Source of the DNA: Naegleria gruberi
Taxonomy: Eukaryota
Direction: 5' to 3' (one strand)
DNA length: 64,000 nt
Assembly (NCBI GenBank): GCA_000004985.1
Contig: GG738910.1
The notes under the pieces are model-generated. The model was not told the DNA's origin. It saw nothing but the letters and a program-made list of their open reading frames with translations, and made no database searches. Below, piece by piece: positions 1 through 64,000 of this stretch; the first letter of the stretch is position 1, and each line of letters begins with the position of its first letter. Made by a program: the position numbers and the translations under genes.

Positions 1-1751
1 CACTTCATGGTGATGCTTTGAATCAAAGTATTAGAACAGCAGCATCCCAGGCAATTGAAGCAATATTTGAAAGAAATGAAAGTGGTTCCAAGTTTAAAGT
101 AAATATGGATTTGAATGGTTCCGATCAAAATTCTGGAAGAATTGGAACTGCACCAACTGGAGGATTTGGTGTTTTTGGAGGAGGAGTAGGAAGTTCAGAC
201 TATGGTAACGACTATACACACGCTTCCGATACTGAAAATAGACCAGCTTTTGGTGGAGGTTTTGGACCTAATACTCCTGCTTTTGGTGGAGGTTTTGGTT
301 CAAATACTGTTAATAATCAAGCTTCTAATGCAGGAAGAGTTGGTACCATGACTGGTATTGGTAGTACATTTGCGAATGAGCAAATAGCAAAACAAAATCA
401 ATCTGCTGGTTGGACTGGTACTCTCAGTAATTTAACAAACTACCTCCCAACTTGGTCTAAACAGAAGGATACTCACGGTATGGATAAAAACAATTTCCCA
501 GGACTAATTGCTGGATCAGAATACGAAGGTGCTGATGCAAATGGCTCATATGTTGGAGTTATTCTTCCACCTGGAGGATCTTCTGGTCTATCTGGATCAT
601 CTCATGTTCCTGGAAAGAAACTTTGGGAAACTGATACCCCTTCAACAAAATCAACTAACAATACAGTGGGAGAGTTAGAAATTAAGGTGGTGAATGAATT
701 TACTTCACCAGGAGGTATTCGTAAACCTGCTCCAACGAAGAAGGAATGTACAGACTTTGCTCAAAAGTGTTCATCGCTCAACTTATTGCAAGTAGCCGAA
801 TTATTGAATCAAAAATTGGATGATCATGAATGGATTGTAAGACTTAAGGCTCTGTATGGTATTGAGGCTCTTTTGAAGGCTGAAAATAAGGCTGTCACTG
901 AATTTTATTCCGAAAATTGTGAAAATATCTTAAAACAATCAGAATCCGTGCAAGAAAGTGTTAGACAACAAGCAGAAAAGGTTGCCAAATTGTTGAACTT
1001 TGATGAAGGAGATGATGCTCAGTATGGACCAACACTTCTCGAAGATTTTGGAGGCATGTCCATTTCAACCTCCTCTCCATCTACCTCTAAAACTACTAGA
1101 AAACAAATCAATTTTGTTCCATCCAGTGGTTCTACCACAACCACTAACAATAACTCAAATGATGCCTCTGACTTCTTTGATATGATGAATGATAATTCAA
1201 CAAGTAATTCAGGTGATGATATATTAAGCGGATTTGAGGTGAAGAACTACCAACCAACACCAAAGCAACCTGTTCAACAAAAGACAACAAGAACACCAAC
1301 AGAGACAAAGCCAAGAGTACAACCAAGTCAAAAGACTCCATCAAGTGCAACAACCCCAACCAAATCAGATTTGTTGGACCTTGATACCTTACTCTCTGCT
1401 CCAACAATTCCCTCCCAAAAGACAACTACCACTACACCAACATCCATTCCATACACTGTCCCTGTACAACAACCAATCTATGCTATTCCAACATATCCAC
1501 CAATGTACCAACCATATGGCGTAGTACCTCAACCTGGAGTACCAATTTACCCTGTTTATCAACAACCTTATTATCCACCACAAACCTTTGCAAATGTCGG
1601 AACAATTCCAAACAGATCAAATCCTCCTCCAATTATGCCAAAAGGTTCACAAAGTCAAGCTTTTGATTTTATCAATAATACTCAACCTCAAGAGCAACCA
1701 AAAGAAGAAAAGGATTCTTTTGATTTTGTTAAGCAAGTTTATCTTAAATAA
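1..1751 (+). CDS. 5'-truncated (window edge) low-complexity adaptor-like protein: FGGGFG repeats, helical VHS/ENTH-like segment (ECTDFAQKCSSLNLLQVAELLNQ...), clathrin-box-like DLLDLD, Pro/Gln/Tyr-rich tail
   Basis: The frame is open from base 1 with no upstream stop. The long ORF stops with TAA at 1749-1751. The L[LI][DEN][LF][DE] clathrin-box consensus is matched by SDLLDLDTLL. Confidence 0.45.
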   Translation, partial: LHGDALNQSIRTAASQAIEAIFERNESGSKFKVNMDLNGSDQNSGRIGTAPTGGFGVFGGGVGSSDYGNDYTHASDTENRPAFGGGFGPNTPAFGGGFGSNTVNNQASNAGRVGTMTGIGSTFANEQIAKQNQSAGWTGTLSNLTNYLPTWSKQKDTHGMDKNNFPGLIAGSEYEGADANGSYVGVILPPGGSSGLSGSSHVPGKKLWETDTPSTKSTNNTVGELEIKVVNEFTSPGGIRKPAPTKKECTDFAQKCSSLNLLQVAELLNQKLDDHEWIVRLKALYGIEALLKAENKAVTEFYSENCENILKQSESVQESVRQQAEKVAKLLNFDEGDDAQYGPTLLEDFGGMSISTSSPSTSKTTRKQINFVPSSGSTTTTNNNSNDASDFFDMMNDNSTSNSGDDILSGFEVKNYQPTPKQPVQQKTTRTPTETKPRVQPSQKTPSSATTPTKSDLLDLDTLLSAPTIPSQKTTTTTPTSIPYTVPVQQPIYAIPTYPPMYQPYGVVPQPGVPIYPVYQQPYYPPQTFANVGTIPNRSNPPPIMPKGSQSQAFDFINNTQPQEQPKEEKDSFDFVKQVYLK

Positions 1752-1773
1752 AGTTTTGTTTTATGTACAATTT

Positions 1774-2238
1774 TTACTCGATTTCACCAATAGCGTCTAT
1801 TGGATCCTTAGTATCATCATTATCAACTGCCTTATTATCTCCAAATTCTTCTTCAATGTTATCCAGTTCTTTTGGAACATCATCATTATTATTAGCAGCT
1901 GATTCATCCATTTTCTTCATTTCTTCAGCAATCAATTCGTTCAATTCCTCATCTTCTGCCTCTTTCTTTTCTGCTGACTGATTTAAATCAGTTTGAGGGT
2001 TTTCAACCATTTCCTCTAAAATATCGTTATTGTTTGTTGTTCCATTATTATCAGTTTGTTCTTGAGTGTTTTTTGGAACATCACCTGTTGTTGTATTAAG
2101 TTGTTCCGACGATATATCTTGGACAACTGTTGTTGATGTATTATTTACAGGTTCTACTGTATCTTTGTCCCTTGGCGATTCTGGTTGTTGGCTATTGGCG
2201 ACATCAGTGGCTTTAGTCGTTGAACAAGAACTTCCCAT
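1774..2238 (-). CDS. small acidic protein with N-terminal MGSSCS (N-myristoylation/palmitoylation consensus) and D/E-rich C-terminus
   Basis: 154-aa ORF with an ATG start; MGxxxS/T motif; no homolog recognised. Confidence 0.35.
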   Translation of the reverse strand: MGSSCSTTKATDVANSQQPESPRDKDTVEPVNNTSTTVVQDISSEQLNTTTGDVPKNTQEQTDNNGTTNNNDILEEMVENPQTDLNQSAEKKEAEDEELNELIAEEMKKMDESAANNNDDVPKELDNIEEEFGDNKAVDNDDTKDPIDAIGEIE

Positions 2239-2540
2239 TCTAATGAATCTCTTGTTGTTACGTTTTTTTCAGTTGTGTGGCAAATTCATTAAAAACCACT
2301 GAAAGTACCAACCGTTTAATGTGGGAACTTGTTATTGAGGGTGATTGATATTGAGCGACACAACAAAATATCATTCAATTTTTAAAATCGATGTATTTAA
2401 TTCTAATTGAAAAGTAAAGTGGCTTAAATTTTCTTCCAAATTCTTTGGATTAATAATTTTATTATCAAATATCAATACATCAATGTATTTAAATATTTTC
2501 AATTAAATAACATTCAATCAATTTTGTCGTCTTCAAAAAA

Positions 2541-11018: not shown

Positions 11019-11591
11019 ATGGGCCATTCGGGAGAAGTCTATCATCCTATTTTGACAAGGTCTGCAGGCTATTCAAATGAACAACAGAAACAGGAACACA
11101 CTTTTCTTGTGAGTCATACACATGGCTTTGAACAAATTGTGAAGGATGAAATTCTTTTACTTTTTGACTCATTAAATTTGATGTAATTTAATTGGTATGA
11201 AAAATTAAATCCGAAAATTAGGGTCCACGATTATCCAACAACTATTGCTGGTAAATTTATGAAAAAGGTGGAAAACTCGGTACCAAACTACCTAAAAACT
11301 TTGAGTGAGAGTCACAAAGTGACATTTGTTAATTTTTCTAATTTATTTGAAATTGAATTTTTATATTCTAGAAATGGATTATTAATATTTAATGTTTCTT
11401 CTAAAGGAAGTGATAATAATTTATTTATGGAAAATCTAGTTTATTTAGTCTGCCATTTAAATGCTATTCCTAGTATTGATTTTGTGTATTCATTTATTTG
11501 CATTGTTCCTGATATACCCTTTGATAAAGAGACTACAATGCCAATATTTGCAGAAACTATACCAAAAAGAGAACAAGATACTCAAACATAG
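11019..11591 (+). CDS. N-terminal part of a THUMP-type RNA methyltransferase: exon A 11019..11182, 39-nt intron 11183..11221, exon B 11222..11591 ending at in-frame TAG
   Basis: Exon A encodes ...FLVSHTHGFEQIVKDEILLLFDSLNL, resembling the THUMPD3 TGFEQ block. The GTAATT...TTAG intron contains an in-frame TAA, and splicing restores the frame. Exon B has a THUMP-like FEIEFLYSRNGLLIFNVSS. The same frame stays open beyond the TAG at 11589-11591. Confidence 0.45.
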
Positions 11592-11705
11592 AAACAATCC
11601 TTTGAACTATTCGAAAAATTATATTGCAAAAAGTTTGAAAAACAAAATCTTTATTCCAAGGATACCAACTTTAGGGCTACTGGTGTAAGAAAACAAACAA
11701 GTATT

Positions 11706-13073
11706 TTGAAGCATGACTACAAATCAATGGATATGGCCGCTGAGTATGGATATGGAATTGGGGAAACAATTTGCAAGGACATGAAGGTTAACCTGAAAAA
11801 GTATGACCTTGACATGTTAATTTATTTGGATATTGATAGAGTGTTTATAGGAATGCTATTGTCCCCTCCATTACATGCTTTAGAAGAATTGAAAATTAGT
11901 TCAGCATGTTCAGGACATGGTGGTTGCATCTCACCAAATAATTGTTCATGTGTCTCTGGATATTATGGAAGTGATTGTAGCCAATTTGATTGTTATGGAA
12001 CTGCCTCCACAAATACATCAACATGTACTAATCACGGTAGTTGTATATCCCCAAATAACTGTTCCTGCTTATCAGACTATTATGGAAAAGAGTGTACTCA
12101 ATATGATTGTTTTGGAACTATTTCAACAAATGGTTCAGTATGTTCTGGACACGGTACCTGTCTCTCACCAAATAACTGCTCATGCTTAGCTGGATATTAT
12201 GGAAATGATTGTAGTGAATTTGATTGTTACGAAACTGCCTCCACAAATGCATCAGCATGTTCTGGACATGGTGGTTGCATCTCACCAAATAATTGTTCTT
12301 GTTTAGATGGATACTACGGAAATGTTTGTAGTCAATTTGATTGTTATGGAACTGCCTCAACAAGACATTTTTCTTTGAATAATCAAGTTATTGATAGAAA
12401 TCTCAGTGAGGACGAATTGAATGAATTGAATTCATGTGATTTGATTTATTCATACACTAAACAAGATATTAGATTAACCTTCGGAAAATCTATCTTGAAA
12501 CCTCAAACAAGTTACATGCTTTGGAAAACTTTACTGATGGAAAATTCAATTTTACGAGACAAATTATTCCAACAATCACAATTAGTTACTTTTGTTGATC
12601 CATTTGCAGGAAGTGGTACTCTTTCACTCTCACTTAATTATCTCTTCACTGATAATGATCCTAAAGTTCAACTTTATAATATTGATTTCAATCTAGATGA
12701 AGTGAGTGTTATGAAGGATAATTGCAGCAAAAACAGAAATAATCATATTTTAAATTGTGATTCTAGATTCTTACCTTTTAGAAATGAAAGCATTGATGTT
12801 GTTATATCAGATATGCCATTTGGAGTTTTATGTGAAAATCACTCTAGAAACTCAAAGGTCTACCCAAAGATTGTAAAACAACTCGAAAGAATTGTTAAGC
12901 CTGATGGAATTGTAATGCTGTTGACAATTGAACTTACCTTACTGGAATCTCAACTGAATGCCAGAAATCGGTGGACATTCACAACACAAAAAGTAACACT
13001 TGGAGATTTAGGTAAGGAATCCAAGCAACCATTTACATTGGCAAGAAGAAACCTCCACAAAATAAATTTATGA
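11706..13073 (+). CDS. continuation of the same frame: 4 tandem EGF-like repeats followed by a class I SAM-dependent methyltransferase domain (THUMP-family, motif I FVDPFAGSGT, motif IV ISDMPFG)
   Basis: 455-aa ORF in the same frame as 11019..11591, separated only by a single TAG. LTFGKSILKPQTSYMLW precedes motif I, as in THUMPD-type MTases. Confidence 0.5.
   Translation: MKHDYKSMDMAAEYGYGIGETICKDMKVNLKKYDLDMLIYLDIDRVFIGMLLSPPLHALEELKISSACSGHGGCISPNNCSCVSGYYGSDCSQFDCYGTASTNTSTCTNHGSCISPNNCSCLSDYYGKECTQYDCFGTISTNGSVCSGHGTCLSPNNCSCLAGYYGNDCSEFDCYETASTNASACSGHGGCISPNNCSCLDGYYGNVCSQFDCYGTASTRHFSLNNQVIDRNLSEDELNELNSCDLIYSYTKQDIRLTFGKSILKPQTSYMLWKTLLMENSILRDKLFQQSQLVTFVDPFAGSGTLSLSLNYLFTDNDPKVQLYNIDFNLDEVSVMKDNCSKNRNNHILNCDSRFLPFRNESIDVVISDMPFGVLCENHSRNSKVYPKIVKQLERIVKPDGIVMLLTIELTLLESQLNARNRWTFTTQKVTLGDLGKESKQPFTLARRNLHKINL
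11901..12368 (+). repeat. 4 tandem 117-nt (39-aa) coding repeats, EGF-like C-x3-G-x-C-x4-C-x-C-x2-GYYG-x2-C; copies 1 and 4 nearly identical at nucleotide level
   Basis: Repeats start at about 11901, 12018, 12135 and 12252. Cysteine spacing and codon phase are conserved. Confidence 0.7.
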
Positions 13074-15145: not shown

Positions 15146-16680
15146 ATGAAAGAAAAAATGCAAAAGAATCAATTGATTATCACGTTGGTTGTCTTATTGA
15201 GTGTGGTCGCTTGTACTGTCTATGGTTTCTCAGCTAATCCATGCACATTCTGTCAAACAAGTTTTGATATGGTTGCTACAGATAAGAGTAAGTATGATAT
15301 TTCTTTTTGAATGGTCATGAACTCGTTGCATGAATAATCCATTCAATCCTCAACCGATTAATCCAACTCCAGTGAAGCAATTAGTTCCTCCAGTTGCTCC
15401 ACAAAACGCAAGTGAAACTGCCATCTTTTCTGATAGTAACGGAAATGCCACAACTAATAGTTCTTCGATCTTGAATGGCACCTTGGTAACTTCACACTCA
15501 ACTCAACTCATAGTCTTCATATTAATGGAAGCATTGAACACGCCAACGGTTCTATTACAGTTGGTAATTTGACCTTTGAAGGTGATTTCCATGCCAGTGG
15601 AATTATTGCCATGATTAATGACTCTTTGATTGTTGATGGTTCATCTTTAATCAATGGTTCAATTGATCACGGATTGATTCAAGTAAATGGTAGTGTTGCT
15701 TCTAATGGTTCCTTAATGATTTCCATCTCAACTTGGTTCTCTAATGGGTCTCTCTTAATTAATGGATCGTTCGATACTGATGAAGGAAATGCTTTTGAAT
15801 TGAATGGTACTTTGGGTCATAGTGGTGGTTTCGTCTATTCAAACCAGTCTTGGAACACTAATGGTTCCTTGACCATTCAAGGTGATTTGATTCTTCCTTC
15901 CATGGACGAATTCAGTGGTACTCTTCAAGTTAATGGTACTGTTAATTCCTCAATCAGTGGTGATTTGAGCATCATCGGTTCCATGCTTTTAGATGGTTCT
16001 TTCAATGGAAATGAAACTGATTTCAACATGAACGGTATTTTGACACACAACGGTTTGTTCTTCCAAGATAATGAAACTGTTCACATTGCTGGTTCATTGG
16101 TTTTTGAAGGTAACATGTCTCCCATCCAACAACTCACTTAATGGAACTGCTGTTATCGATGGTACCATGAAATCCTCAGATGGTCAATTGTATATTAATG
16201 GTTCAATGATTATCAGTGGTACATTCTTGAGTAATGAAAATCTTGAATTGAGTGGTTATTTGGCTAATAACGGTTCATTCTTAATTGATAACTCCTCCAT
16301 GACAAGTAATGGTTCTCGAAATGACTGGTACCATTTCATTGCCATGCTCAACCTTAATTGATGGTAATTTGACTGTCAATGGTAACTTGAACTCAACAGT
16401 TGGAAGTATGTTAACTATCAATGGAACTACCCATGTTAATGGTAACTTGACATTGAGCCATGCCTTACTCATCACTGGTAACTTGACAATTCACGGAACT
16501 GTTCATTTGAATAACACAAATGTTGCAATCATTGTTCAAGGGGGCGATTTCACATCTGTTGGTGGTATTGTTGCTAATAACACTGCTGATGGTGCTTTGA
16601 GAGCTGACAATGTTTTAACTTTCATGAATATTACTGATATGACTTTCACTAGTATCAAGGTGAAGAGTACAATGAAGTAA
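15146..16680 (+). pseudogene. frameshifted gene for a secreted, N-glycosylation-rich repeat protein (xINGS/LNGT repeats); signal-peptide exon 15146..15287, 85-nt intron 15288..15372, then repeat exon broken into frames 0/2/0/1
   Basis: Five overlapping ORFs in three frames (15056, 15330, 15569, 16071, 16309) all encode the same N-G-S/T repeat. Frame changes occur near 15510 (at an (ACTCA)3 pentanucleotide run), near 16125 (at a ccc run) and near 16335. Confidence 0.5.
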
Positions 16681-16938: not shown

Positions 16939-17853
16939 TCATTGAAAAATTGAAATTTCTTTGGATTTGTTATTAATAACATAGAGTAAACCAGTTCTCT
17001 TATCAACAAACAATCCAAAATTTCTTGAAAAGGCATTAGAATCTTCAAATGTTTTTACAATTGAGAAATCAAACAATCTAATGACAAAAATTCGATGATT
17101 TTCAGTATCCGATAAGTAAACTAATCCAGATTCCTTCTCATAAAATATTGAATAGGCAGTTGAACACTTGGGAATGACCACTCTTCTTTTAGAGATCCAA
17201 TTATTTTCTTGCTTTTTGAAAATTTCCAAAGATTGTTGATTGGATGTTAATATTTCACTTTCAGATAAAAATTCAATTCCATATCCATTAACTAAACTAA
17301 TCCCATCTTCACCTTCATCCTTTCCTGTTTCCTTATTTGCTTTACAAACTACTGATCTATTGTAATCAAGAAAAAACACTTGATTTCCCATCAAATCCAA
17401 CCCCCAAATATTCGTGTTTGATTTTTTACATTCCCACACAATTCCTTCCTTTCCTTCCATCAAATCCTTCACTCTAATTTTAATAATTCCTCCACTTGTA
17501 CTTGCATAAATAAATTCCTCTGAATTCTCATTCACCAATCGCAAACAATGAAACACAAATTCCTTATACTTGACAGCAAATAAAAGGGAATTTTCAGAGG
17601 TGACAACTTTTGATTTATCGAAAATCATTAATGATGATCCACCAACTACAATAATTACGTCGAAACAATTAGAAATTGCAATATCAAAGCTCGGCTCGAA
17701 ATTAGCAACATTCAACGTTCGTACAAGTTTAAAATTTAAAGAAAATTGGAGGAATTTGGAAGCGAGTGATTGCTTTAAATATTTAAATAATTGATCAATG
17801 TTGTTGTCTTCCGAGGAGGATTTTAGATCAATTAGTGAAATGATTGTTGACAT
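16939..17853 (-). CDS. small cytosolic protein with NHL-repeat-like motifs (LVYLSDTENHRIFVI, LLYVINNKSKEISIF)
   Basis: 304-aa ORF with an AAAATG start; weak NHL/beta-propeller-like repeats. Confidence 0.4.
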   Translation of the reverse strand: MSTIISLIDLKSSSEDNNIDQLFKYLKQSLASKFLQFSLNFKLVRTLNVANFEPSFDIAISNCFDVIIVVGGSSLMIFDKSKVVTSENSLLFAVKYKEFVFHCLRLVNENSEEFIYASTSGGIIKIRVKDLMEGKEGIVWECKKSNTNIWGLDLMGNQVFFLDYNRSVVCKANKETGKDEGEDGISLVNGYGIEFLSESEILTSNQQSLEIFKKQENNWISKRRVVIPKCSTAYSIFYEKESGLVYLSDTENHRIFVIRLFDFSIVKTFEDSNAFSRNFGLFVDKRTGLLYVINNKSKEISIFQ

Positions 17854-18262: not shown

Positions 18263-20745
18263 ATGTTAAATTGGCCTGGTTTGTATGATAAGAAGAATCA
18301 CAAGGCAATAATATTGAATGTCGATGATTTAGGTGATTATGAGGTATTATCGGTCCTTGATTTTTCATTATGTGATTCGGATGTTTTCATGACCAAAGTA
18401 CCTGATTATCTTCAAAGTTCTTGGAAGAGTGCTTTGGAATTAACGAATAATAATACAAAAGAGGAATTAATAATGAAACACGTTTTTGAAAAACAAGAAA
18501 AGACTGTTATTGATAGAATAGAGGCAGAGAACAATGATGTTGCTCCTGACTTGCCACTAAGTACAAAATCTTTTCTTGCAAAAGGTTTGATTTCTCTTAA
18601 ACCAACAGGCATAGTGTTTGATGATAATAGGGACATGTTAAAAGTTGAAGAAGATATGGAGTGTGTGTTTGATAGGGACAAAATAGAAAATGTTGATTGT
18701 CCTATTGAGTTCTCCAAAAAACTGTTCCTCTCCTACAAAAACAACAATCCAACTCCATTACTGTCACCACTGTATGCATTACAGAACATGTATTTTGAAC
18801 AAAATTCAGAAATGAACTATCAGGAAACTCTTTCTATTCTGTTTGCCTATCTCATTAGTATTTCAAATGGAAACTTGGCCTCTACTGAGTATGTTCACCA
18901 ATTCTTTTAAATTCCAACTTTAACTCTTTTAGAAATGTCAGACAACAATCACCTGAAAATCAAACTAGATTGGCTTCATATTTCACAACAAAATATTTCC
19001 TGCCTGATAAAATATTGACTCGCAGAAATATTATTCAAGACTATGATTGGAGATGCTTTTTTGGAGAATGGAAACCAGTGGAAGTGGATACAATTTACGA
19101 CCATCCAGACTTTAAGAAAATTGTGTTACTAATGAGAGGATCTTTAAAAGAATTGATGAATAAGTTGTTCTCAAATAATTTACTTAATTCAGATACTGAA
19201 CTGGACAACTTTGGATCGCTCTCTTGTGGGACTAAAATTTGCTTTTTAAGACTTTTTCTTGTACCAAAGAGTAGAAATACTGACATTTTTTGTTATTGTT
19301 TTAGATTATTCAGTTCGGAATGGTATGATATTAAAACATCGAAAGGAAGAGCAAAAGTTATATCAATAATTCTTCAAATTGGAAAAAACTGCTTGAATAA
19401 GAATTTCAATGAAGTCAAAAAAAAGGTGGCAACAATATCTGACACACCAACAACTTCAAAGTCCAGGACAGATCCAGGACCTTTTGATATAACCAATCAG
19501 TCAATTATGATACATCAATTATTCCCTCAACATTTGTTATACGAATTTAAAACACCCGATGATGCTATTGAACATTTTTCTCTAATACTACGATATCCAG
19601 TACCTGTTGAAGAAATAGTTCAAAAAGAATACAAAAGGTCTTTTATCAAAAATTATCTGAACCAAAAAGGAAGAACCTTACTGTTTTTTACAAAGGAAAA
19701 ACCTTTCGAATTGAATGTTTGTCCAAGGGGACAATTATGTCCCCATCCTATGAATGAAATTCAGTTGTTGTCCAGTATTAAAGGAGAGAAGCAGACTTAT
19801 AGGTATTGGTTAGTTAAAGTTTCAATGAGAACAATTGAATATATATATTCTAGAATTGAAGATGGACACGATCAAGAGGATTTTGAGGACGATGAAAGGG
19901 AGGATGATGAAAGGAAAGGCGATTATAACAAAGATAATAACAATGATCAAAGCGATAACAACAATACTTCTCTTTTTCGTCTTTCCCAAAGTATTCATGA
20001 TCTTGATTTAGGATCAGACTTTAGCAACTTGCAAATGGAAAAACTAGAACAAAAATCAATTCTAGGAACCATACAATATAAGAATAAGGAATCGTATTTC
20101 AAGATTACAAATAGAGAATTTGATAATGTGTTTGTAATGAAATTGATGCAAGAAATTAGAGACCCTAATATTTGCAATATTTTCTATTATGGACCTGTAA
20201 ATAGCCAACTAAATATTACAGTTCAAGAAAAATTATTAAACTATGATGAGCTGATAAAAAAGATGCAAAGCAATCAAGAATATCAAGGAAATTCCATAAT
20301 AAGAACCATCATACTGAAGACATTGATAGGTTGTTTACATGCTCTTAAATGCATTCATAATAAGGGCATTGTTCATTGTGATGTCAGTGTTCATAATATT
20401 ATGTTTAGAATGAAAACCAGTTGCGATTTCGATGCTGTTTTAATAGATTTCAATAACTCGAAATACTTGAATTCCAATCAACCAAGTATATTGAATTACA
20501 AAGATGATTACACACCCCAAGATCCGAATATCAGATTCACGGTAAAACATGATATATTCGCTCTATCTGTGGTTATTAAAAAGTTAATGGCCAACTACTC
20601 CAGTGTTTGTGAAGAGATTTGTAGTGACATTCATTTTGAAGAATACAACATTATTCCAATCTCCAATTGTATGGAGAAAATGAGTGCACTTAAGTATTCA
20701 AGAGTTACTGAAGTATTGGATGACATTGTCTCCATGACCATTTAA
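18263..20745 (+). CDS. one gene from two ORFs: exon 1 18263..18888, 44-nt intron 18889..18932 (GTATGT...TTTTAG), exon 2 18933..20745; C-terminal divergent protein-kinase-like domain (HCDVSVHNIM, IDFNNSKY)
   Basis: Splicing joins ...NGNLASTE to ENVRQQSPENQTRLAS... in phase, and the second ORF lacks its own ATG. The kinase catalytic-loop and DFG equivalents are degenerate, so this is probably a pseudokinase. Confidence 0.5.
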
Positions 20746-22602: not shown

Positions 22603-24401
22603 TTAATGTTCACACAAGGAAAATTCTCTTTCATATTGTTCGTTTTTGTCATCTCTCTTATACTTTCTGTGATCCATGAGAATTTCACGAGTTTCATTTG
22701 CTTGTTCCTCAGTCATTTGTGGAATGAAGGGAATGACATTTTTCACAAGCACTGGATAGGTAATCTTTTGAGCTAACGAGAAGGAATTTGAAATAATGAC
22801 ATCTCTTCTCTGATTATCAATGTGACTTGTTGAGATAATTGGTGCATCTGGATCAACAAAGAAAAAGACAAGGATTTTTCTAGTTGCTGTCTTTTTTGGG
22901 TCTTCAGGGAAGAAATGTTTCACTCTGTGTTGATTTGTATTTGGGAAAATGATGCATTTACCTTCAGTTGTCTTGACCTTTCCAATTACTTCACATAATT
23001 TGTCTCCGTCATGAATCTGAATTTCCAATTAATTTCCAAAATAAAAAGTCAACTTACACCAAATCGTTCCCAAGCTTGCAAAACATTATCCTGTTCAATG
23101 TAATAAAAGTTTTCCTCACGTAACGATTGTCTAAATTCCAAGAAACTTTGCTTAATATTTTGACATTCATAATAGAAAATGCCAGTTGCCACAATATTCT
23201 CAGTATCTCCCTCAGTATGCCAAGTTCCTCCTGGATAGAAACCTTGTTCTGGAGTGACAATTACATTAGCTGCCTTGACAATTACTTGAACCTTATCCTT
23301 AATGTTAACAAAATTGTTGACAGGTTCAATAAAATGTGATAAGACTTCACAAATGGTATCTTGCAAATCCTTTTGAGTAATTGGATTAACATTGTTAATA
23401 TAAGATAGAGGAGTAACCTTATTATCACTATCCACTTTGAAATCAGTTGGTATCCATTGAGTTTCAGCAACTCCAACACGAACTTCACCTTTCTTTTCAT
23501 TCAAAACACTCAACTCTTTCGAATAGCAATACAAAGAAGGATGAATAATATCCAAAACTTGTTGATTTGAACCTGGATGCCAATCTAACTTGTCAACTGG
23601 AGTATTTTCCACAATTTCGTTCAATTGTTTCTTTAACCTTTCAGTCAAATCTGCAGGAATTAAATTTTCCTTTTCGAGACAAACATAGCTTGAAACACCT
23701 CTTTCATCAAATGCACAATGGGCACAGGGACACAAACAGAATTTTGTAGATCTTGGGTAATAACCTTCTTCTTCTTCTTCTTCGTCATCTTCAATTATTT
23801 CGTCATCATCTTCAATCACTTCGTCTTCATTTTCATTCATTTCGTCTTCATTGTCTTCATCTTCCTCATTTTCGTCTAGTTTCTTTTTAATTTTCTGGTC
23901 AGCATTACCTTCTGCTTTCTTTTTTTCCTCCTCTTGAACTTTCTTCTTTTTCTTTTCAGGTTCTTCTTCAGTACTTTCGAATAATGTTTCATTCTCATCA
24001 ATTGTCTTCTCCTCTCTATCACTCCAATTTTTAATTTTCTTTGGATTGGCATTGCAACAACCACAACAACGTTTCCTATAGGTAGAAATTTCAAGTAAAT
24101 CGTTCAAAATATCCATCGCTACGAGGAAACTACTTTCGGATATTCCTTGTGAAATAGTTTCCTTTCTCCATTTTGCAACAATGGTATTGAATATGATCTT
24201 TTCTTGCCAATTGTCCTTGTCTAGTATTTGGCGAACAATCTTTTCGGCATCTAGTGGATTGACCTGAACTCTTGGATGTCTGTGTGAAATAAATTCTTCT
24301 TCCTCTTGAGAAGATTCTTCAAATTCTTCTTCGTCTTCTTCGTTACCAGAGATTTGGCTGGTTGGCTCTTCTTCGGTATCGCTGAGTGATCGTTTCGACA
24401 T
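22603..24401 (-). CDS. two-exon gene: exon 1 24401..23058, 41-nt intron 23057..23017 (GTAAGT...TTCAG), exon 2 23016..22603; acidic E/D-rich N-terminal region with Cys clusters, C-terminal 2OG-Fe(II)-oxygenase-like/DUF4246-like region
   Basis: The GTAAGT donor directly follows ...WERFG. Splicing joins it in phase to IHDGDKLCEV...IIFPNTNQHRVKHF. Without splicing the protein ends at GVS*. Confidence 0.5.
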
Positions 24402-27334: not shown

Positions 27335-27857
27335 CAAGTAGAGTTCCATTAACTCTTCAGACAAAAACTTTCGAGTTACCATCATACAATGATTGTATCA
27401 ATATTATTCCAGAAAGTCTACTACAATGTTCTTTTAAGTGTTTGTATTAAATCTCAACAACCATCAAAAAGTCTCAACATTTTTCCTTTCTCACCAATTC
27501 AATGAAGAGATTTTCCCAAATATTCAAAATAGAAAAAATCTATTAATAATCTTATTGTTTAGAATTGTTTCCAACACGTCACATAACATGACCATTTGTG
27601 ACATTTTTAATGTTTGATTGCTTTGTAAACTTTCAAGAATCCATTAATAGTGAGACAGAGATGAAAATATTCAATATCAACAACGTTACTAACAAAGCCA
27701 TTGCTTTATCCCACTTTCCAATGGCTCACCACCACAACAATATTATGAACAACTCTCTCAGGCACAATACCGTATTTCAGCTGTACTTCCCACCAAAATC
27801 ATCATCGCTACAAGGATGCCTTCAATTTGATAATGTGTGTTCTACTTCTCATCTAAT

Positions 27858-27867
27858 AAGGCGCCAC
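27858..27867. promoter_or_regulatory. AAGGCGCCAC E2F-like motif about 165 bp upstream of the cyclin ATG
   Basis: GGCGCC core. Confidence 0.25.
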
Positions 27868-28023
27868 TGGAACCTGCTAATGTGTAGCCAACGATTCGAG
27901 TACGTGTTGACAAACGTGGCTGAGTGCGAAGTTGTTTCTGAAAGGAGAAGGGGATCGCAACAACTTTGCTGTTGGTCATCATTTAAAAAAAAAATTGCCG
28001 TACAATTTTATCCGCAAAGTACA

Positions 28024-29108
28024 ATGGCAAGACAACAACGAACCAATTCTTCGAAACAGGGAGGACGCAGAAGAAGATATTCCAATGATGGGGACTCGAG
28101 AGAGGAATATAGCAGCACTACAACAACAACAAATAATGGTGTTGCTCATACTAATAACACTACTTCAGTTGCTGCTGCTGTGAGTTCTCAAGCTTATTCT
28201 TCTAAAAAGTCTGAAGATTGTAAGGGAACTTCTCCTGCAAGAGATGTTGGCGTTGTTCAAAATAACAATTCCACTATTAATAATAATAACAATAATACTA
28301 CCACCACTACTTCCCAATCATCATCAATTCCTTCCTCTACAACAAATTCTTCAACCACCTCCACTACTTCTAAAGATGAAGTTATCCCAGCTAAACTCTC
28401 CCAAGAAAATTCATATTTTGGATTAAACCAAGATGAATTCATCAATGCCTTCTCTTCTGTAATTCAAGAAATTTCATCACAAGGAGACATGATCCCTATT
28501 GAAGCCCAACAAAAAACACAATTCCACACCTCTCTTCCACCAAGAATATCACTTCGTAAATATTTGGACAGAATTATCAAGTTTGCTTTCTGTTCTGCTG
28601 AATGTTATATTCTCAGGTATGTTGTTTCAACGAAATTCATAATTATTCATCATCTTTCTACAGTCTTGTATATATGGATAGGTTGGTACAATCGAATCCT
28701 AATTTTGTGATTAGCAGCTTGTCTATTCATCGTTTACTCATCACCAGTATTATGGTTGCTGCCAAGTTCTTTGATGACAAGTTCTATAGCAATGAATACT
28801 ATGCCAATATTGGTGGTATCAAGAAGGAGGAAATTAATAAGTTGGAGATTGAATTTCTCTACATGATTAACTTTTCTCTCCACTTCCAACCACCTGAATT
28901 TGAGCAGTATAAGGAAGAGTTTATTGTTGCTCCAGCCCTCAGAGAGAGAGCTCTCAAGAAACGAACAACAGCTGTTGGTTCTTCTAAACAGTACTCTGTG
29001 GGACAATCACATCATAGTTATGGTGATGAAGTGAGCATTGAGGAATCATGTATATCCATATGTTCAGAACAACAACAATATCCACGACATTCGTCTCCCA
29101 TCCATTAA
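28024..29108 (+). CDS. PHO80-like / U-type (P-type) cyclin, two exons: 28024..28616 and 28664..29108 (47-nt intron GTATGT...CTACAG)
   Basis: The spliced protein reads ...RKYLDRIIKFAFCSAECYILSLVYMDRLVQSNPNFVISSLSIHRLLITSIMVAAKFFDDKFYSNEYYANIGGIKKEEINKLEIEFLYMINFSL, matching the cyclin-U/PHO80 core block. The start ATG at 28024 was chosen as the first Met of the conserved part; the ORF extends further upstream. Confidence 0.75.
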
Positions 29109-37884: not shown

Positions 37885-40320
37885 ATGAGTCAACAACAAT
37901 TCGTTGGGAATGGAAGCCCGCCAAATATTTCAACTACTTCTATGAATGCTGCTGCTACTAATACTACTACTGGTAATGTTGTGGTTGGTACCTCAACAAC
38001 ACCATCAACAAACACTGGGAATGTGGGAGGGATATCGAATGGTGCTGGAACAGCTTCCCTTAAAACCTCACCGAATGATCTGTTGCTGAATTTACGTAAA
38101 TACACGAACAAATTGTTGGAGATTAATGGAACAAATCAAGTGGTTTCTGTTCCTTCGAACGTTGGTGTTGGAAAAGAGGTTGCACAGCCTCTTGCTTCTC
38201 TCTCCACTCCGACACTGAACCTTAATCAAAATATTGAGGAGAATAGAAATAATCAACAAATTGAAGAGGAAAGAGTGGAACCACAACAAGTATTCAAAAT
38301 TCCTCAACAGCAAACAAGTAGACCAGCAAGTCCAAAAAGGAGTGAAAGTTTGGTGATAATGGATGACCAAATTTCGGATATTGAAAGTGTTACTGATAAT
38401 GACCAGAGTAATACTAGCAAAACAGTTGTAAATTATAGAGATTTAGAAGTGAAAAAGTGTTATGATATTATTTTCAAGCTAAGAAATAGGCTTGCTAAGG
38501 AAAAGGAAAAGAATGATCAACAGGAAAGAAGAAAGGAAGATTCCACAAAGATGCTAGGAAAGTTAATTGATCATTATAAATCGGAAAACTCTAGATTGAT
38601 TCAACAATTAGATTTACTGAGAAGAGATTCTGATGCACAAATTGAGGAACAGTTACATCAGATGAATGATTTGAGGATTTCAAACTTTACTCTATCAGAA
38701 GAAATTAACATTCTAAGAAATTCAGTGAACATTGAGAAACAAAAAGGAGATCAAGATATTGAGAGACACATTAGAGAAAAGTCAAAAACACAATCAGAGT
38801 TAATTGAATGTAAAAGGGAAAATTCCAAACTTAGAGAAACAATAATGGTGCTGGAAGAAAATATTAAAAAGGCAGAACTCAACGCAGCAGAATCTGTGAA
38901 AAATTTTGAGGAAATTGAAATACCATCATTGAAAAGAAAGTGTGGGTATTACGAAAAGACAATCTCTGATTTGGAAAAGAAACTAGATGAGATTCGGAAA
39001 GATCAAGAACGGTCTGTGAATCAACATGTGGAGAGATTTAAATCAAAAGAAGCAGTCATGGGAGAAACCATCAAGCGATTGGAAGAAGATTTGAAAAAGC
39101 AACGAGAATCAATGAAGCAAAACTCCAATTCAAGTTCAGAGGAGAAGAAGCAACTTGAAATTCAATTGAAAGAACAAGTTAATTTGAATGATGAAACAAG
39201 ATTAGAATTGGCTAATTTAAAGTCTTCTCTAGAGGATATAGAAGTTAACATGTTGAATCACCTCATTCAAGAACATGAAGAATTAATTATTGAAGTTTCT
39301 CAAATGGATGCTTTTATGACTGAGGTATTTTCAGTAAAATCAAGAAAGGAAATTAAGAGATTGGTGACTGAAAATTTGGAACTCAAGAATCAATTGAGTT
39401 TGATGAATGAACAATACGAGATTAACAAAAAGCAACTCCAACACGCAACTCTTGAATTGGATGAACTAAAATCTTCCTTCAATAAGGGTGATCAAGTGTT
39501 GAGTCAATTAGAGAACCAAAGAAAGACTCAATCTGAGAGACATAGAATAGAATTGGAAGAATTGAGAACAGAAATGAGAAATTTTACAATTTCACAAAAA
39601 GCAGAAAAAGAGAACTTGTTAGATTTGTTGGACAATACCAAAACTCAACTGGATACTTGCCAACATAAAATGGAGCAAATGCAACTGGAAAGAAGTGATG
39701 GCCAAAAAGAGGTTCAATACCTCAGAAAAAGAAACTCTGAGCTTGAAACTCAACTTCTCAACGCAGAATCAGATAGACAAAGATTGGTTTCAGAAGTTTC
39801 CAATCTTAATTGTACATTAGATCAATTGAGAGATGAAGTCGATGCCAAGAACGATGAAAATAGAAAGATTGTAGAGCAATCAAGATCTTCCATGCAATCT
39901 ATTCAAGTCAAACTCAACAGAGACCAACAAATCTATCAGAAGAGTGAATATGATTGGAATCAAAAAGTGAAACATCTGAATGATATGGTACTTCAAGCGG
40001 AGTACAATCTTTCGGAATATAAAAAGAAGTACAAGGAAGAAATTAGCAGCTTTAATAATGATTTAATTATGAGGCAACAACAAATTGAAAGTTTACAAAC
40101 CGATGTCCAAAGAATGAAACAGGAAGGCATGTCTATTACAGCTCAAAACAAGAAAGACTTGGATGTGAGAGAACAGGAAATTCAAAAGATCAAGAGAGAA
40201 AAACAACAATTAGAGCATTCAATTGTTCAAAAAGAAAGAGAGAAAGACTCATTCAAACTGAGATTGGAAATGATGGAAAGAGAATTATCAAGACTGAAAT
40301 CTCAATATAATGTAAAGTAA
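37885..40320 (+). CDS. long coiled-coil protein (E/K/Q/L heptad-rich, S/T/N-rich head)
   Basis: 811 aa. About 650 aa of uninterrupted heptad-like charged sequence. Confidence 0.55.
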   Translation: MSQQQFVGNGSPPNISTTSMNAAATNTTTGNVVVGTSTTPSTNTGNVGGISNGAGTASLKTSPNDLLLNLRKYTNKLLEINGTNQVVSVPSNVGVGKEVAQPLASLSTPTLNLNQNIEENRNNQQIEEERVEPQQVFKIPQQQTSRPASPKRSESLVIMDDQISDIESVTDNDQSNTSKTVVNYRDLEVKKCYDIIFKLRNRLAKEKEKNDQQERRKEDSTKMLGKLIDHYKSENSRLIQQLDLLRRDSDAQIEEQLHQMNDLRISNFTLSEEINILRNSVNIEKQKGDQDIERHIREKSKTQSELIECKRENSKLRETIMVLEENIKKAELNAAESVKNFEEIEIPSLKRKCGYYEKTISDLEKKLDEIRKDQERSVNQHVERFKSKEAVMGETIKRLEEDLKKQRESMKQNSNSSSEEKKQLEIQLKEQVNLNDETRLELANLKSSLEDIEVNMLNHLIQEHEELIIEVSQMDAFMTEVFSVKSRKEIKRLVTENLELKNQLSLMNEQYEINKKQLQHATLELDELKSSFNKGDQVLSQLENQRKTQSERHRIELEELRTEMRNFTISQKAEKENLLDLLDNTKTQLDTCQHKMEQMQLERSDGQKEVQYLRKRNSELETQLLNAESDRQRLVSEVSNLNCTLDQLRDEVDAKNDENRKIVEQSRSSMQSIQVKLNRDQQIYQKSEYDWNQKVKHLNDMVLQAEYNLSEYKKKYKEEISSFNNDLIMRQQQIESLQTDVQRMKQEGMSITAQNKKDLDVREQEIQKIKREKQQLEHSIVQKEREKDSFKLRLEMMERELSRLKSQYNVK

Positions 40321-61585: not shown

Positions 61586-64000
61586 ATGCTGAACCGAGTC
61601 TTTCAAACTGGTGTCCTGTTGGTACTCACTCTTACTGTTTTAGTTTTGATTATTGACAATCAACTCTGTGTAAATGCAACATTTAAACCATTGTACAAGA
61701 TGAGTACTGTTGTGGGTGGTGGATTTGATGATGGTCAAGATGCTAAACAAGTTTGCCTTGCTCCAACCAAAGTCAAGTTTGATAGAAAGAGTGAGAATAT
61801 TTATATTTCAGGTGAGTTTTTATTCTAAACATGCTTCAAGATTATATGATTAGATAGAATCAATAATAGAATCAGAAAGTTGGATGTGATGAGTGGAAAG
61901 ATCAGCACTATTGTTGGAAATGAATTTATTGGATTTTCAGGAGATGGTCAAGCAGCAACTCTTGCTCATATCAATAATCCAGGAAAGGTTGAGGTCTCTT
62001 CAAATAATGATATTTACTTTGCTGTAAGTTCTCTTTGTTCTGTTTCTAATACACTCATTTCAAAAAGGACACTAACAATCACAGAATTAGAAAGGTATTT
62101 GCCAATGGAACGATTTTAACCATTGCTGGTTGTGGAGAATTTGGTTTTGATCTGGAAGAGAAATCTCCAGTTCCTGCTCTAGAAGCCAAAATCAATTATC
62201 CTAAAGCAGTTCTTCTCTCTTCTGATGAAAAGATATTGTACATTACAGATACAGCTTCTCACATGATCAAAGCTCTTTCATTCGAAACTGGTTTAGTTTC
62301 CATTATTGCTGGCTCTTTATACCGTGATAGTTCTCAAAACTCAACGATTGTTCAAGGACCAATCAGTTTGGCTTTGAGCCCTCTGACTAGTGAGGTTTAT
62401 TTTGTAGATGATGATGGTATTAAAAAGATTACTAATGAAGGAAAGATCGAAATGATAACAAGAAATTCTAAATTTGGTGGAGATGGAGGTCTAGCAATCA
62501 ATGCTGGAGTTTCAGCTGTTGATATTGAGTTTTTGGGCACTAGTAATACATTGTTAATTGCTGATTACGGCAATAATCGAATTAGAATTATTGGTACCAA
62601 TGGCTTTATTGAAACCTATGCTGGTAATGGTAATGTGACTTCAAGTATTGATGGCGAAAGAGCTTTAGATTCTCCACTGACGGCTTTTGGAGTTTCCACA
62701 TCTAATGAGGGTGAAGTTTATTTTGCTGATTATGCCAGAGTTTCAGTTGTCACCATTAATGGCTTAATCAAACACGTGGCTGGTAATGGGAAATTGCAAT
62801 ATTTGGGAGATGGTAATTTAGCAACCCAAAGTCAATTATTCAAGCCAAGAGGTGTTGCTGTTTCCACAAGTGGAGAGCTATTTATCAGCGATTCTGCTCA
62901 AGATACTATTCGAAAAGTTTCTACTGAAGGTGTAATTAATACCATTGCCGGTGGAACTTTTCCATTGGGAGGTTATATTCAAGATGGTGTTGACCCATTG
63001 AATACATTCCTTAATAATCCAAGCGCTCTAGAATTTTCATCAAGTTCAGGAGAATTGTTTCTTTCAGATTCTCACAATTTTAGAGTGAGAAAGATTTCAA
63101 AGGAAAATATCATTTCTACAATCGCTAACCATACCTCAATCACCAGACCACACGGCATTGCTCTTTATAATGACTTGGTTTATGTGGCTGATTCTCAATC
63201 CAATAGAGTGATACGAGTTGATAAGAATGATGGCTCTGTAACTCTGATAGCAGGAAATGGAACTGCTGGTTATTCAGGAGATGGAAGTTTGGCTACTCAA
63301 GCTCAATTATTCAATGTTTCTGGAGTTACTGTTCTTCCTAATGGTGAAGTTTTGATTGCAGACACCAACAATCATAGAATTCGTAAGGTCAACTTGGAGG
63401 GTATTATTCAAACAATTGCTGGTACAGGAATTCCCGGATTTAATGGTGATAATATCCTCGCCACTAGTGCTCAATTGAATTCTCCAACTGACATCGAAGT
63501 TTCTCCAGTTTCAGGTGAAATTATTATTGTTGATTCGAATAATCATCGTATCAGAAAGATTGATTCCTTTGGTAATATTTCTACAATTGCAGGAACAGGT
63601 ATTGCATCATTGAGCTCACATGGTAAACTTTCCATCTATGGAAGTCTTAACACTCCAACTACGCTTTCAATTTCTGCTTTCAGTGGTCATGTCTACATTG
63701 CAGATTACGAAAATAGAAGAATTAGAAAATTGGAACAATTTACTATTGAAAAATACAATCTTCCAGTTCAAGATGATGGTGAATTGAGAACCGAAACTAT
63801 CCAAGATTCTACAAATCTTAAAACAATTAATTATGATAATATTCAAATTGAACCTCCAAAGGAAAGTTTAAAGAATTCAGAGCTGAGTCTTGCCACTTCA
63901 GTTTACCAAGTCGACAGAAATGGAAAATTAACATCTTTTGAAAAGTCTATTAAGAGTGGAATTGTCACTGTTGCAATTTTGGATTCTGATTGTAATGTTA
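61586..64000 (+). CDS. paralogous NHL-repeat secreted/membrane protein, 3'-truncated by window edge; exons 61586..61811, 61854..62023, 62068..>64000
   Basis: Signal peptide. Introns of 42 nt (GTGAGT...TTAG) and 44 nt (GTAAGT...AAAAAG) restore the NHL motifs (GD-RINNRIRKLD and DTNNHRIRKVFANGTILTIAGCG). At least 10 further NHL repeats follow (IADTNNHRIRKV, IVDSNNHRIRKI). Confidence 0.7.

Follow-up and report, generated by a model that had tools for sequence, protein, structure and literature searches.

The Naegleria gruberi NEG-M gene NAEGRDRAFT_81705 (XP_002670928.1, EFC38184.1, UniProt D2VYC7), which is deposited as encoding a 'predicted protein' of 394 amino acids, can be read through its long exon only with three changes of reading frame. 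The locus is already known in that it is present in the databases, where its gene model conceals the frame breaks. The most likely reading, to which we give about even chances, is that of a unitary pseudogene of recent origin or a null allele, the indels of which would then reside in the DNA of the organism itself. The sequence examined is a stretch of 64 kb, hereafter called the window, that has a GC content of about 34%, is gene-dense, and contains few and short introns. All 394 residues of XP_002670928.1 were reproduced exactly by splicing window positions 15158-15287, 15561-16078, 16110-16272 and 16307-16680. Therefore, the source sequence is the N. gruberi NEG-M reference, or is identical to NEG-M at this locus. 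NEG-M was also the sole N. gruberi genome used in a pangenome study of 2023 (PMC9928731). The literature search retrieved no papers naming the identifiers of this gene. Its parts, as we read them, are the following:

15146-16680, + strand: whole gene, composed of a signal-peptide-like exon, an 85-nt intron and about 1.3 kb of Asn-Gly-Ser/Thr repeats
15146-15287, + strand: exon 1, starting with the ATG at 15146 and ending in phase 1, with a signal-peptide-like N-terminus
15288-15372, + strand: intron 1, 85 nt, GTAAGT...CTCCAG, joining the long exon in phase 1
15373-15484, + strand: coding segment a, in the frame of 15147, reading KQLVPPVAPQNASETAIFSDSNGNATTNSSSILNGTL, with a codon log-odds score of +33.5 bits
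15485-16120, + strand: coding segment b, in the frame of 15146, about 212 codons with hexapeptide repeats of the x-L-x-I-N-G type
16121-16317, + strand: coding segment c, in the frame of 15147, delimited by frame openness and stop distribution
16318-16680, + strand: coding segment d, in the frame of 15148, ending with TAA at 16678-16680 as stop codon

The product of exon 1 consists of MKEKMQKNQ followed by LIITLVVLLSVVA and CTVYG. It combines a basic n-region with a hydrophobic core of 13 residues, and small residues occupy a potential cleavage position between VVA and C or between VYG and F, so that it looks like a putative signal peptide. In the public model, translation starts from the second ATG at 15158, as compared to the ATG at 15146 in our reading. 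The codon log-odds of intron 1 are at or below zero in every frame, as is the case for the other real introns of the window. An earlier inspection of these letters, here referred to as the sequence-only reading, had proposed a signal-peptide exon and an 85-nt intron, and both were recovered at the positions listed above. The start, the splice sites of intron 1 and the stop are intact, the gene contains no nonsense codons, and the codon signature is undiminished throughout the segments (0.9-1.4 bits per codon).

Between 15373 and the stop, four open stretches follow one another: up to 15569 in the frame of 15147, 15461-16138 in that of 15146, 16044-16358 once more in that of 15147, and 16303-16677 in that of 15148. 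Outside its own segment each of these frames is rich in stops, with up to about one stop per 7 codons. The need for three frame switches that had been claimed previously was thus confirmed, since the stop distribution leaves each frame open over its own segment only. The stops permit switches in the zones 15461-15569, 16044-16138 and 16303-16358. To place the switches within these zones, we trained a table of codon log-odds, comparing in-frame with off-frame reading, on those core parts of the gene whose frame is unambiguous, and determined the best change point per permitted zone. For the first break, S1, the change point was 15482-15484 (95% set 15476-15493), and a nearby ACTCA run received only about 4% of the weight. 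For S2 the change point was 16122 (95% set 16116-16138), and for S3 it was 16316-16318 (95% set 16313-16326). Combined with comparisons between repeats of the gene, this locates the breaks as follows:

15484-15487, + strand: frame break S1, lacking one base (or carrying 2 or 5 extra), placed by change point, repeats D6 and D8, and codon register
16116-16124, + strand: frame break S2, a deficit of two bases or a surplus of one at ATGTCTCCCATCC, placed by change point and paralogous 12-mers
16313-16320, + strand: frame break S3, a deficit of two bases or a surplus of one at GGTTCTCGAAATG, placed by change point and a paralogous unit

Of the switch sites that had been suggested earlier, the one near 16125 was upheld (S2 at about 16120-16124), whereas those near 15510 and 16335 have to be moved upstream to 15482-15484 and to about 16316-16318, respectively.

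At S1, two internal repeats meet. In the first of these, D6, TTGAATGGCACCTTGG (15471-15486) matches TTGAATGGTACTTTGG (15800-15815), and the latter continues as TTGGGT with a third G (L-N-G-T-L-G). In the second, D8, TGGTAACTTCACACTCAACTCAACT (15484-15508) matches TGGTAACTTGACAATTCACGGAACT (16476-16500; G-N-L-T-I-H-G-T) with 76% identity at the DNA level. These matches, which differ in register, join between TTGG and TAAC. Furthermore, TGGTAACTT is present in four copies in the gene, all in one common codon register, the other four GGTAAC hexamers all encode Gly-Asn in frame, and GN[LF]T is seen at four further places. Because of this junction and of the codon register of TGGTAACTT and GGTAAC, our best guess for the simplest lesion at S1 is the loss of one G, TTGG(G)TAAC, which would have converted TTGGGTAAC into TTGGTAAC. 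The reference sequence at the three break sites reads TTGGTAAC (S1), TCTCCCATCC (S2) and GGTTCTCGAAATG (S3). For S2, the paralogous 12-mers TISLPCSTLIDG and DLILPSMDEFSG were compared with NMS-PSNNSLNG. Our best guess from this comparison is that the Leu codon of the S-L-P motif is short by two bases (TCT CTC CCA to TCTCCCA), the alternative being one surplus C in CCC. For S3, the paralogous unit AATGGGTCTCTCTTAATTAATGGA at 15743, which is encoded by AAT GGG TCT CTC TTA, was compared with AAT GGT TCT C GAA, and here the best guess is that TC was lost from TCTCTC. Repair of S3 in this way brings back the 6-residue unit SLEMTG, and the three repairs together result in an open CDS of 485 codons. 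While the positions of the breaks are reasonably secure, the exact lost bases are deduced from the repeats, and the indel sizes at S2 and S3 would follow from periodicity and analogy to paralogous units only. All breaks fall within 833 nt, the first being at about 15486 and the last at about 16317. Their local contexts are GG (S1), CCC (S2) and TCTC (S3), so that at least two of the three are homopolymer or dinucleotide contexts.

A tandem repeat is located close to S1:

15496-15510, + strand: (ACTCA)3 run, read as T-L-N-S-T-H in the downstream frame

This run is the sole perfect pentanucleotide triple in the 64 kb, where 0.16 would be expected. The sequence-only reading had placed the first switch within it and had attributed the shift to the gain or loss of one ACTCA unit. 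The run is indeed present, but the placement of the switch in it is not borne out by the change-point weights, and while the gain of a unit fits the required shift, a loss does not. Slippage at this site is not supported as the mechanism, as the run is in the downstream frame, with 9-12 nt separating it from the break on its upstream side. Because it belongs to the downstream frame, the run is probably not the lesion. We therefore consider it unlikely that S1 arose by expansion of (ACTCA)2 to (ACTCA)3, with S2 and S3 having arisen as outlined above. This view would be in line with the uniqueness of the run in the window, with its position inside the 109-nt permitted zone, and with the fact that deletion of one unit reopens the frame to give NGTLVTSHSTHSLHINGS. 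However, apart from the low share of the change-point weight, the 11 nt preceding the run (GGT AAC TTC AC) are already in the downstream frame, as judged by the register of TGGTAACTT, GGTAAC and GN[LF]T. The match of D8 to the unit at 16476-16500 also backs the downstream-frame reading, and a paralog of the L-N-S-T that the run encodes lies at 16384-16395.

The public gene model bypasses the three breaks with introns of 273 nt (15288-15560), 31 nt and 34 nt. The two short ones are:

16079-16109, + strand: annotated 31-nt 'intron', GTTCAC...GAAG, GC 0.39, +7.6 bits, encoding VHIAGSLVFEG
16273-16306, + strand: annotated 34-nt 'intron', GTTCAT...CAAG, GC 0.35, +9.5 bits, encoding GSFLIDNSSMTS

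The values of +7.6 and +9.5 bits are coding log-odds over 10 codons of the upstream frame. Both encoded peptides, VHIAGSLVFEG and GSFLIDNSSMTS, are repeat-like and carry the repeat onward, and the GTTCAC and GTTCAT donors coincide with the dicodon GGT TCA, which encodes Gly-Ser in the repeat. The credible introns of the window are 41-115 nt long, start with GTAAGT, GTATGT or GTGAGT, and have a GC content of 0.19-0.35 and log-odds at or below zero. It should be noted that the low GC values in this range belong to introns outside NAEGRDRAFT_81705, and that this reference set is small and includes one member validated by domain continuity, namely the 47-nt intron at 28617-28663, across the junction of which a Pfam Cyclin domain (131 bits) is continuous. 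In view of their GTTCA donors, short lengths or coding-like contents, the annotated introns appear to be devices by which the gene caller kept the frame open, and those of 31 and 34 nt are probably gene-modelling artefacts that skip S2 and S3. The sequence-only reading had stated that no introns with canonical sites were found at the breaks. This was too strong, because frame-restoring GT..AG pairs can be found, yet these would make poor introns, and not a single consensus donor was encountered among all frame-restoring GT/GC..AG pairs that we enumerated at the breaks. The two best-looking alternative introns, with the donors GTAACA (16110-16179) and GTAATG (16306-16399), were rejected as they enclose coding-like repeats scoring +14.2 and +23.4 bits.

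It is accordingly very unlikely that the public annotation is right, and that the gene is functional with introns at 15288-15560, 16079-16109 and 16273-16306 and a product of 394 amino acids. All three of these introns are of the GT..AG type, they leave an open frame, and the database protein is matched exactly. In addition, a study on N. fowleri chose a minimum intron length of 30 bp on the basis of its predicted genes (PMC8296547). However, the donors GTTCAC and GTTCAT lack the A/T-G-T at +4 to +6 that is present in every credible intron of the window, the lengths of 31 and 34 nt compare with 41-115 nt for the others, and the GC content of 0.35-0.39 is exon-like as compared to 0.19-0.35. Moreover, their coding log-odds are positive and the excised peptides continue the repeat. 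The stretch 15373-15484 inside the 273-nt intron was not part of the training set and nevertheless scores as coding in its own frame, at +33.5 bits. That we keep some small weight for the annotated introns is due to the small size of the intron reference set. There is likewise a very slim chance that the 31- and 34-nt introns are truly spliced, or that the breaks are recoded in some other way, leaving the gene functional. If so, Naegleria would possess ultra-short introns with non-consensus GTTCA donors within repeat-coding sequence, far outside the 41-115 nt GTAAGT/GTATGT introns of the window.

A mode of recoding that can be considered separately is programmed ribosomal frameshifting, which would have to involve one -1 and two +1 shifts. 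The sole support for it is that the overlaps of 56-109 nt between the open frames would in principle allow a ribosome to shift. Yet the S1 zone contains no heptamer of the X XXY YYZ type in any frame, and the coding signature departs from each frame about 85 nt (S1), 20 nt (S2) and 40 nt (S3) before the closing stop. Since the coding signal leaves the frame 20-85 nt ahead of the stop, shifting at stop codons does not fit. To our knowledge, Euplotes offers the only precedent for an mRNA that requires three shifts in mixed directions. Programmed frameshifting was therefore rejected on account of the missing slippery heptamer and the disappearance of the coding signal before the stops, and we attach almost no probability to it.

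If the breaks are not spliced or recoded, they are either lesions in the genome or errors in its sequence. In the former case, N. gruberi would once have had an intact, single-copy and lineage-specific gene whose secreted product was about 485 amino acids long, and the long exon would have acquired indels: a lack of 1 nt at about 15486 and, at about 16120 as well as at about 16317, either 2 nt too few or 1 nt too many. Translation from the start would then end at 15570, after about 112 residues. The first indel would have lifted selection, upon which two further indels may have followed by slippage at short repeats, and the time elapsed would have been too short for nonsense codons to appear or for the start and splice signals to be lost. 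Slippage-prone micro-repeats at the breaks would be in keeping with real lesions, and two of the losses may be of 2 nt. Such lesions would predate laboratory culture, because decades are too short for three indels in 1.3 kb.

In the latter case, the gene would be intact in the organism and the indels would represent base-calling or consensus errors in a low-coverage or low-quality patch of the 2010 Sanger draft. We consider this a real possibility, if a somewhat doubtful one. It is a serious rival because S1 to S3 lie within 833 nt, which is about the length of one Sanger read, because the contexts GG, CCC and TCTC include homopolymers and dinucleotides, and because the gene is otherwise intact. 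Indeed, an intact gene hit by base-calling errors would look just like this, free of nonsense codons and with its start, splice sites and stop preserved, and every segment has kept its codon signature. Against this stands the scarcity of such breaks elsewhere. A scan for overlapping open frames on the same strand revealed no other convincing frameshift chain in the window. The flanking genes within 600 nt are unbroken, and no interruptions were seen in neighbouring ORFs, which reach up to 3.5 kb, in agreement with the earlier remark that neighbouring genes of 3 kb and more are intact. Thus, three indels in 833 nt at this locus compare with none detected in about 45 kb of other ORFs of the window, and this excludes a uniform random error rate. 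The preference of the sequence-only reading for decay over random assembly error is therefore supported with respect to a uniform error rate, whereas a local patch of low quality would be a serious rival to it. The losses at S2 and S3, if they are of 2 nt, would also be less typical of Sanger miscalls than single-base indels. Repeat collapse was rejected as an unlikely cause, given that identity among the DNA repeats inside the gene is only 60-88%.

The lack of nonsense codons is too weak to discriminate between a pseudogene and sequencing errors. Among all single substitutions in the gene, 3.3% create a stop. With about 30 neutral substitutions taken as a rough equivalent of three indels, the probability of finding no stop is about 0.37, and it ranges from 0.13 to 0.5 for 20-60 substitutions. 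A young pseudogene is therefore compatible with the absence of nonsense codons, which at the same time reduces the weight of this absence as evidence for sequencing errors.

Exact-product look-ups, run with the public model as well as with two gene segments and two neighbouring ORFs, retrieved no independent copies of the sequence, and two metagenome scans, either protein-guided or with a DNA pattern spanning S3, gave no match. Neither an ortholog nor a paralog was present in 5.8 billion clusters or 1.84 billion representatives, and a word-indexed search matched the locus only. In an exhaustive HMMER search, the next-best hits beyond the locus itself were unrelated T/S/G-rich repeat proteins (E-values of 2.6e-5 and weaker). 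Intact paralogs, for which the sequence-only reading had suggested to search, were found neither in these protein searches nor by tblastn within the window, where no second copy was detected. The gene looks like a single-copy orphan, and it looks dispensable because no ortholog or paralog was found. Unitary pseudogenes with small indels at short tandem repeats present a similar picture, with several frameshifts at G, C or TC runs in a recognisable single-copy gene. The present locus differs from these in that the ancestral frame was inferred without an intact ortholog or allele.

To characterise the encoded protein, we analysed the repaired product of 484 amino acids. It contains 37 N-x-S/T sequons and 16 NG[ST] motifs, and cutting it after [NDSEHQAT]-G turns yields pieces that are mostly 6, 12 or 13 residues long, which indicates a hexapeptide strand periodicity. 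The Asn-Gly-Ser repeats reported by the sequence-only reading are thus borne out by the sequon and motif counts and by the 6-residue periodicity. The protein would be arranged as an N-terminal signal peptide, a short Ser/Thr/Asn-rich linker and a long right-handed parallel beta-helix, the strands of which would follow the hexapeptide-periodic pattern x-L-x-I-N-G-[ST] and carry about 37 N-glycosylation sequons. An AF2 model has a helix at residues 2-25 and superposes on solved right-handed parallel beta-helices with a high score and low rmsd, this being a single-sequence model with a mean pLDDT of 59.9. A right-handed parallel beta-helix fold of the pectin-lyase-like or autotransporter-passenger-like kind is suggested by this model. 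Foldseek against the PDB gave weak matches only (E-values of at least 0.01), and a sequence search of the PDB returned no meaningful relative. With its signal-peptide-like N-terminus and 37 sequons, the product is a candidate secreted N-glycoprotein. Judged from the fold and the signal peptide only, it would probably serve as a surface or extracellular rod that is adhesin-like or interacts with glycans.

The main value of these observations lies in annotation hygiene. This is an ordinary case of annotation or pseudogenisation, and specialists would be surprised by neither outcome. Compared to the public model, our reading keeps the 85-nt intron, restores about 90 coding-like residues and calls the frame broken. 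XP_002670928.1/D2VYC7 is probably a chimera in which about 90 real coding residues are skipped by artificial introns, and users of the N. gruberi proteome inherit this error in AlphaFold models, in orthology assignments and in Pfam counts of 'eukaryotic bactofilins'. If the indels are real, the locus would provide an example from a free-living amoeba of the decay of a lineage-specific secreted beta-helix glycoprotein. If they are errors, which we hold possible to the tentative degree stated above, the true product would be a beta-helix protein of about 485 amino acids, and this intact orphan surface protein could be of interest for adhesion or prey recognition.

The one match in Pfam was to Bactofilin (PF04519, DUF583), with 41.9 bits for the repaired protein and 37.6 bits for the public model, as compared to a gathering score of 27.9. 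The uninterrupted segments b and d scored 20.7 and 24.1 bits, both of which are below 27.9, and the match covers only positions 4-66 of the 98 profile positions. A certain likeness to bactofilins is given by the right-handed beta-helix with rungs of about 17-18 residues and strands of about 6 residues. However, bactofilins are cytoplasmic polymer-forming domains of about 100 amino acids with 6 windings, disordered tails and, at the N-terminus, a peptide for membrane targeting (bioRxiv 10.1101/617639), whereas the Naegleria protein would be a solenoid of about 400 amino acids behind a signal-peptide-like N-terminus. No bactofilin chains were among the best structural matches. Eukaryotic PF04519 hits outside stramenopiles and ascomycetes have moreover been judged to be repetitive non-bactofilin sequences or isolated hits (bioRxiv 10.1101/617639). 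A bactofilin identity was not adopted in view of the length of the solenoid, the 37 sequons and the signal-peptide-like N-terminus as opposed to a compact domain of about 100 amino acids. We therefore name the putative product a secreted beta-helix protein, since bactofilins are compact and cytoplasmic and other eukaryotic hits of this kind have been dismissed. The beta-helix proteins with which it can be compared are Vag8 and pertactin of Bordetella, HMW1 of Haemophilus, EtpA and Ag43 of Escherichia coli, and the wall adhesins Awp1 and Awp3 of Candida glabrata. Its identity to these passengers and adhesins is 7-19%, at which level homology is undetectable from sequence. The Naegleria protein differs from them in its dense N-x-S/T sequons, and it would leave the cell by means of a putative eukaryotic signal peptide as opposed to an autotransporter or two-partner system.

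The (ACTCA)3 run at 15496-15510, where the sequence-only reading had placed the first frameshift of the Asn-Gly-Ser/Thr repeat gene NAEGRDRAFT_81705, is the sole perfect pentanucleotide run of three units in the 64-kb window, where shuffled sequences are expected to yield 0.16. It is separated by only 9-12 nt from S1, the inferred first frame break of this gene, for which the best guess is the loss of one G in TTGG(G)TAAC. On this reading, the run lies so close to S1 by coincidence, the chance of which is roughly 0.002-0.005.

The gene is followed downstream by a convergent neighbour, whose stop codon lies 259 nt from its own:

16939-17853, minus strand, intact ORF of 304 aa

The sole match of this ORF was a marginal one to an NHL-repeat (E 2.6e-4).

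An unusual domain combination was found in the region 11187-13073 (+), where one open frame, 11592-13073, encodes a SAM methyltransferase domain of the THUMP/RMKL-like type (Pfam PF01170; residues 295-433 of the ORF 11706-13073 (+)). Upstream of this domain, in the same frame, comes a tandem array of four Cys-rich, EGF-like repeats, each about 38 aa long (CSGHGGCISPNNCSC..GYYG..C..FDCYGTASTN; EGF_2 match at 1e-21). Such repeats are an odd companion for an RNA methyltransferase, which is presumably cytosolic. The preceding open segment, 11187-11588, shares the frame of 11592-13073, and a lone TAG (11589-11591), possibly the 3' end (...ACATAG) of an intron, is all that separates the two.

Two further regions should be mentioned. 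Six open frames that overlap one another in a chain, each 200-375 nt long and drawn from different reading frames, occupy 1243-2299 (+), partly within the long ORF 18-1751; the chain may mark either low-complexity sequence or a further decayed gene. A strong purine excess on the plus strand (GC skew 0.18, AT skew 0.27) characterizes 38001-40000, inside the ORF 37885-40320 (811 aa), and probably reflects a charged low-complexity protein.

Lastly, one short intron and three likely ones were identified elsewhere in the window:

28617-28663, plus strand, intron of 47 nt (GTATGT...CTACAG) interrupting the PHO80-like cyclin gene 27598-29108
18889-18932, likely short intron of 44 nt
23017-23057, minus strand, likely short intron of 41 nt
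62024-62067, likely short intron of 44 nt

The Pfam Cyclin domain continues across the junction of the 47-nt intron, which provides a helpful standard for genuine short Naegleria introns.
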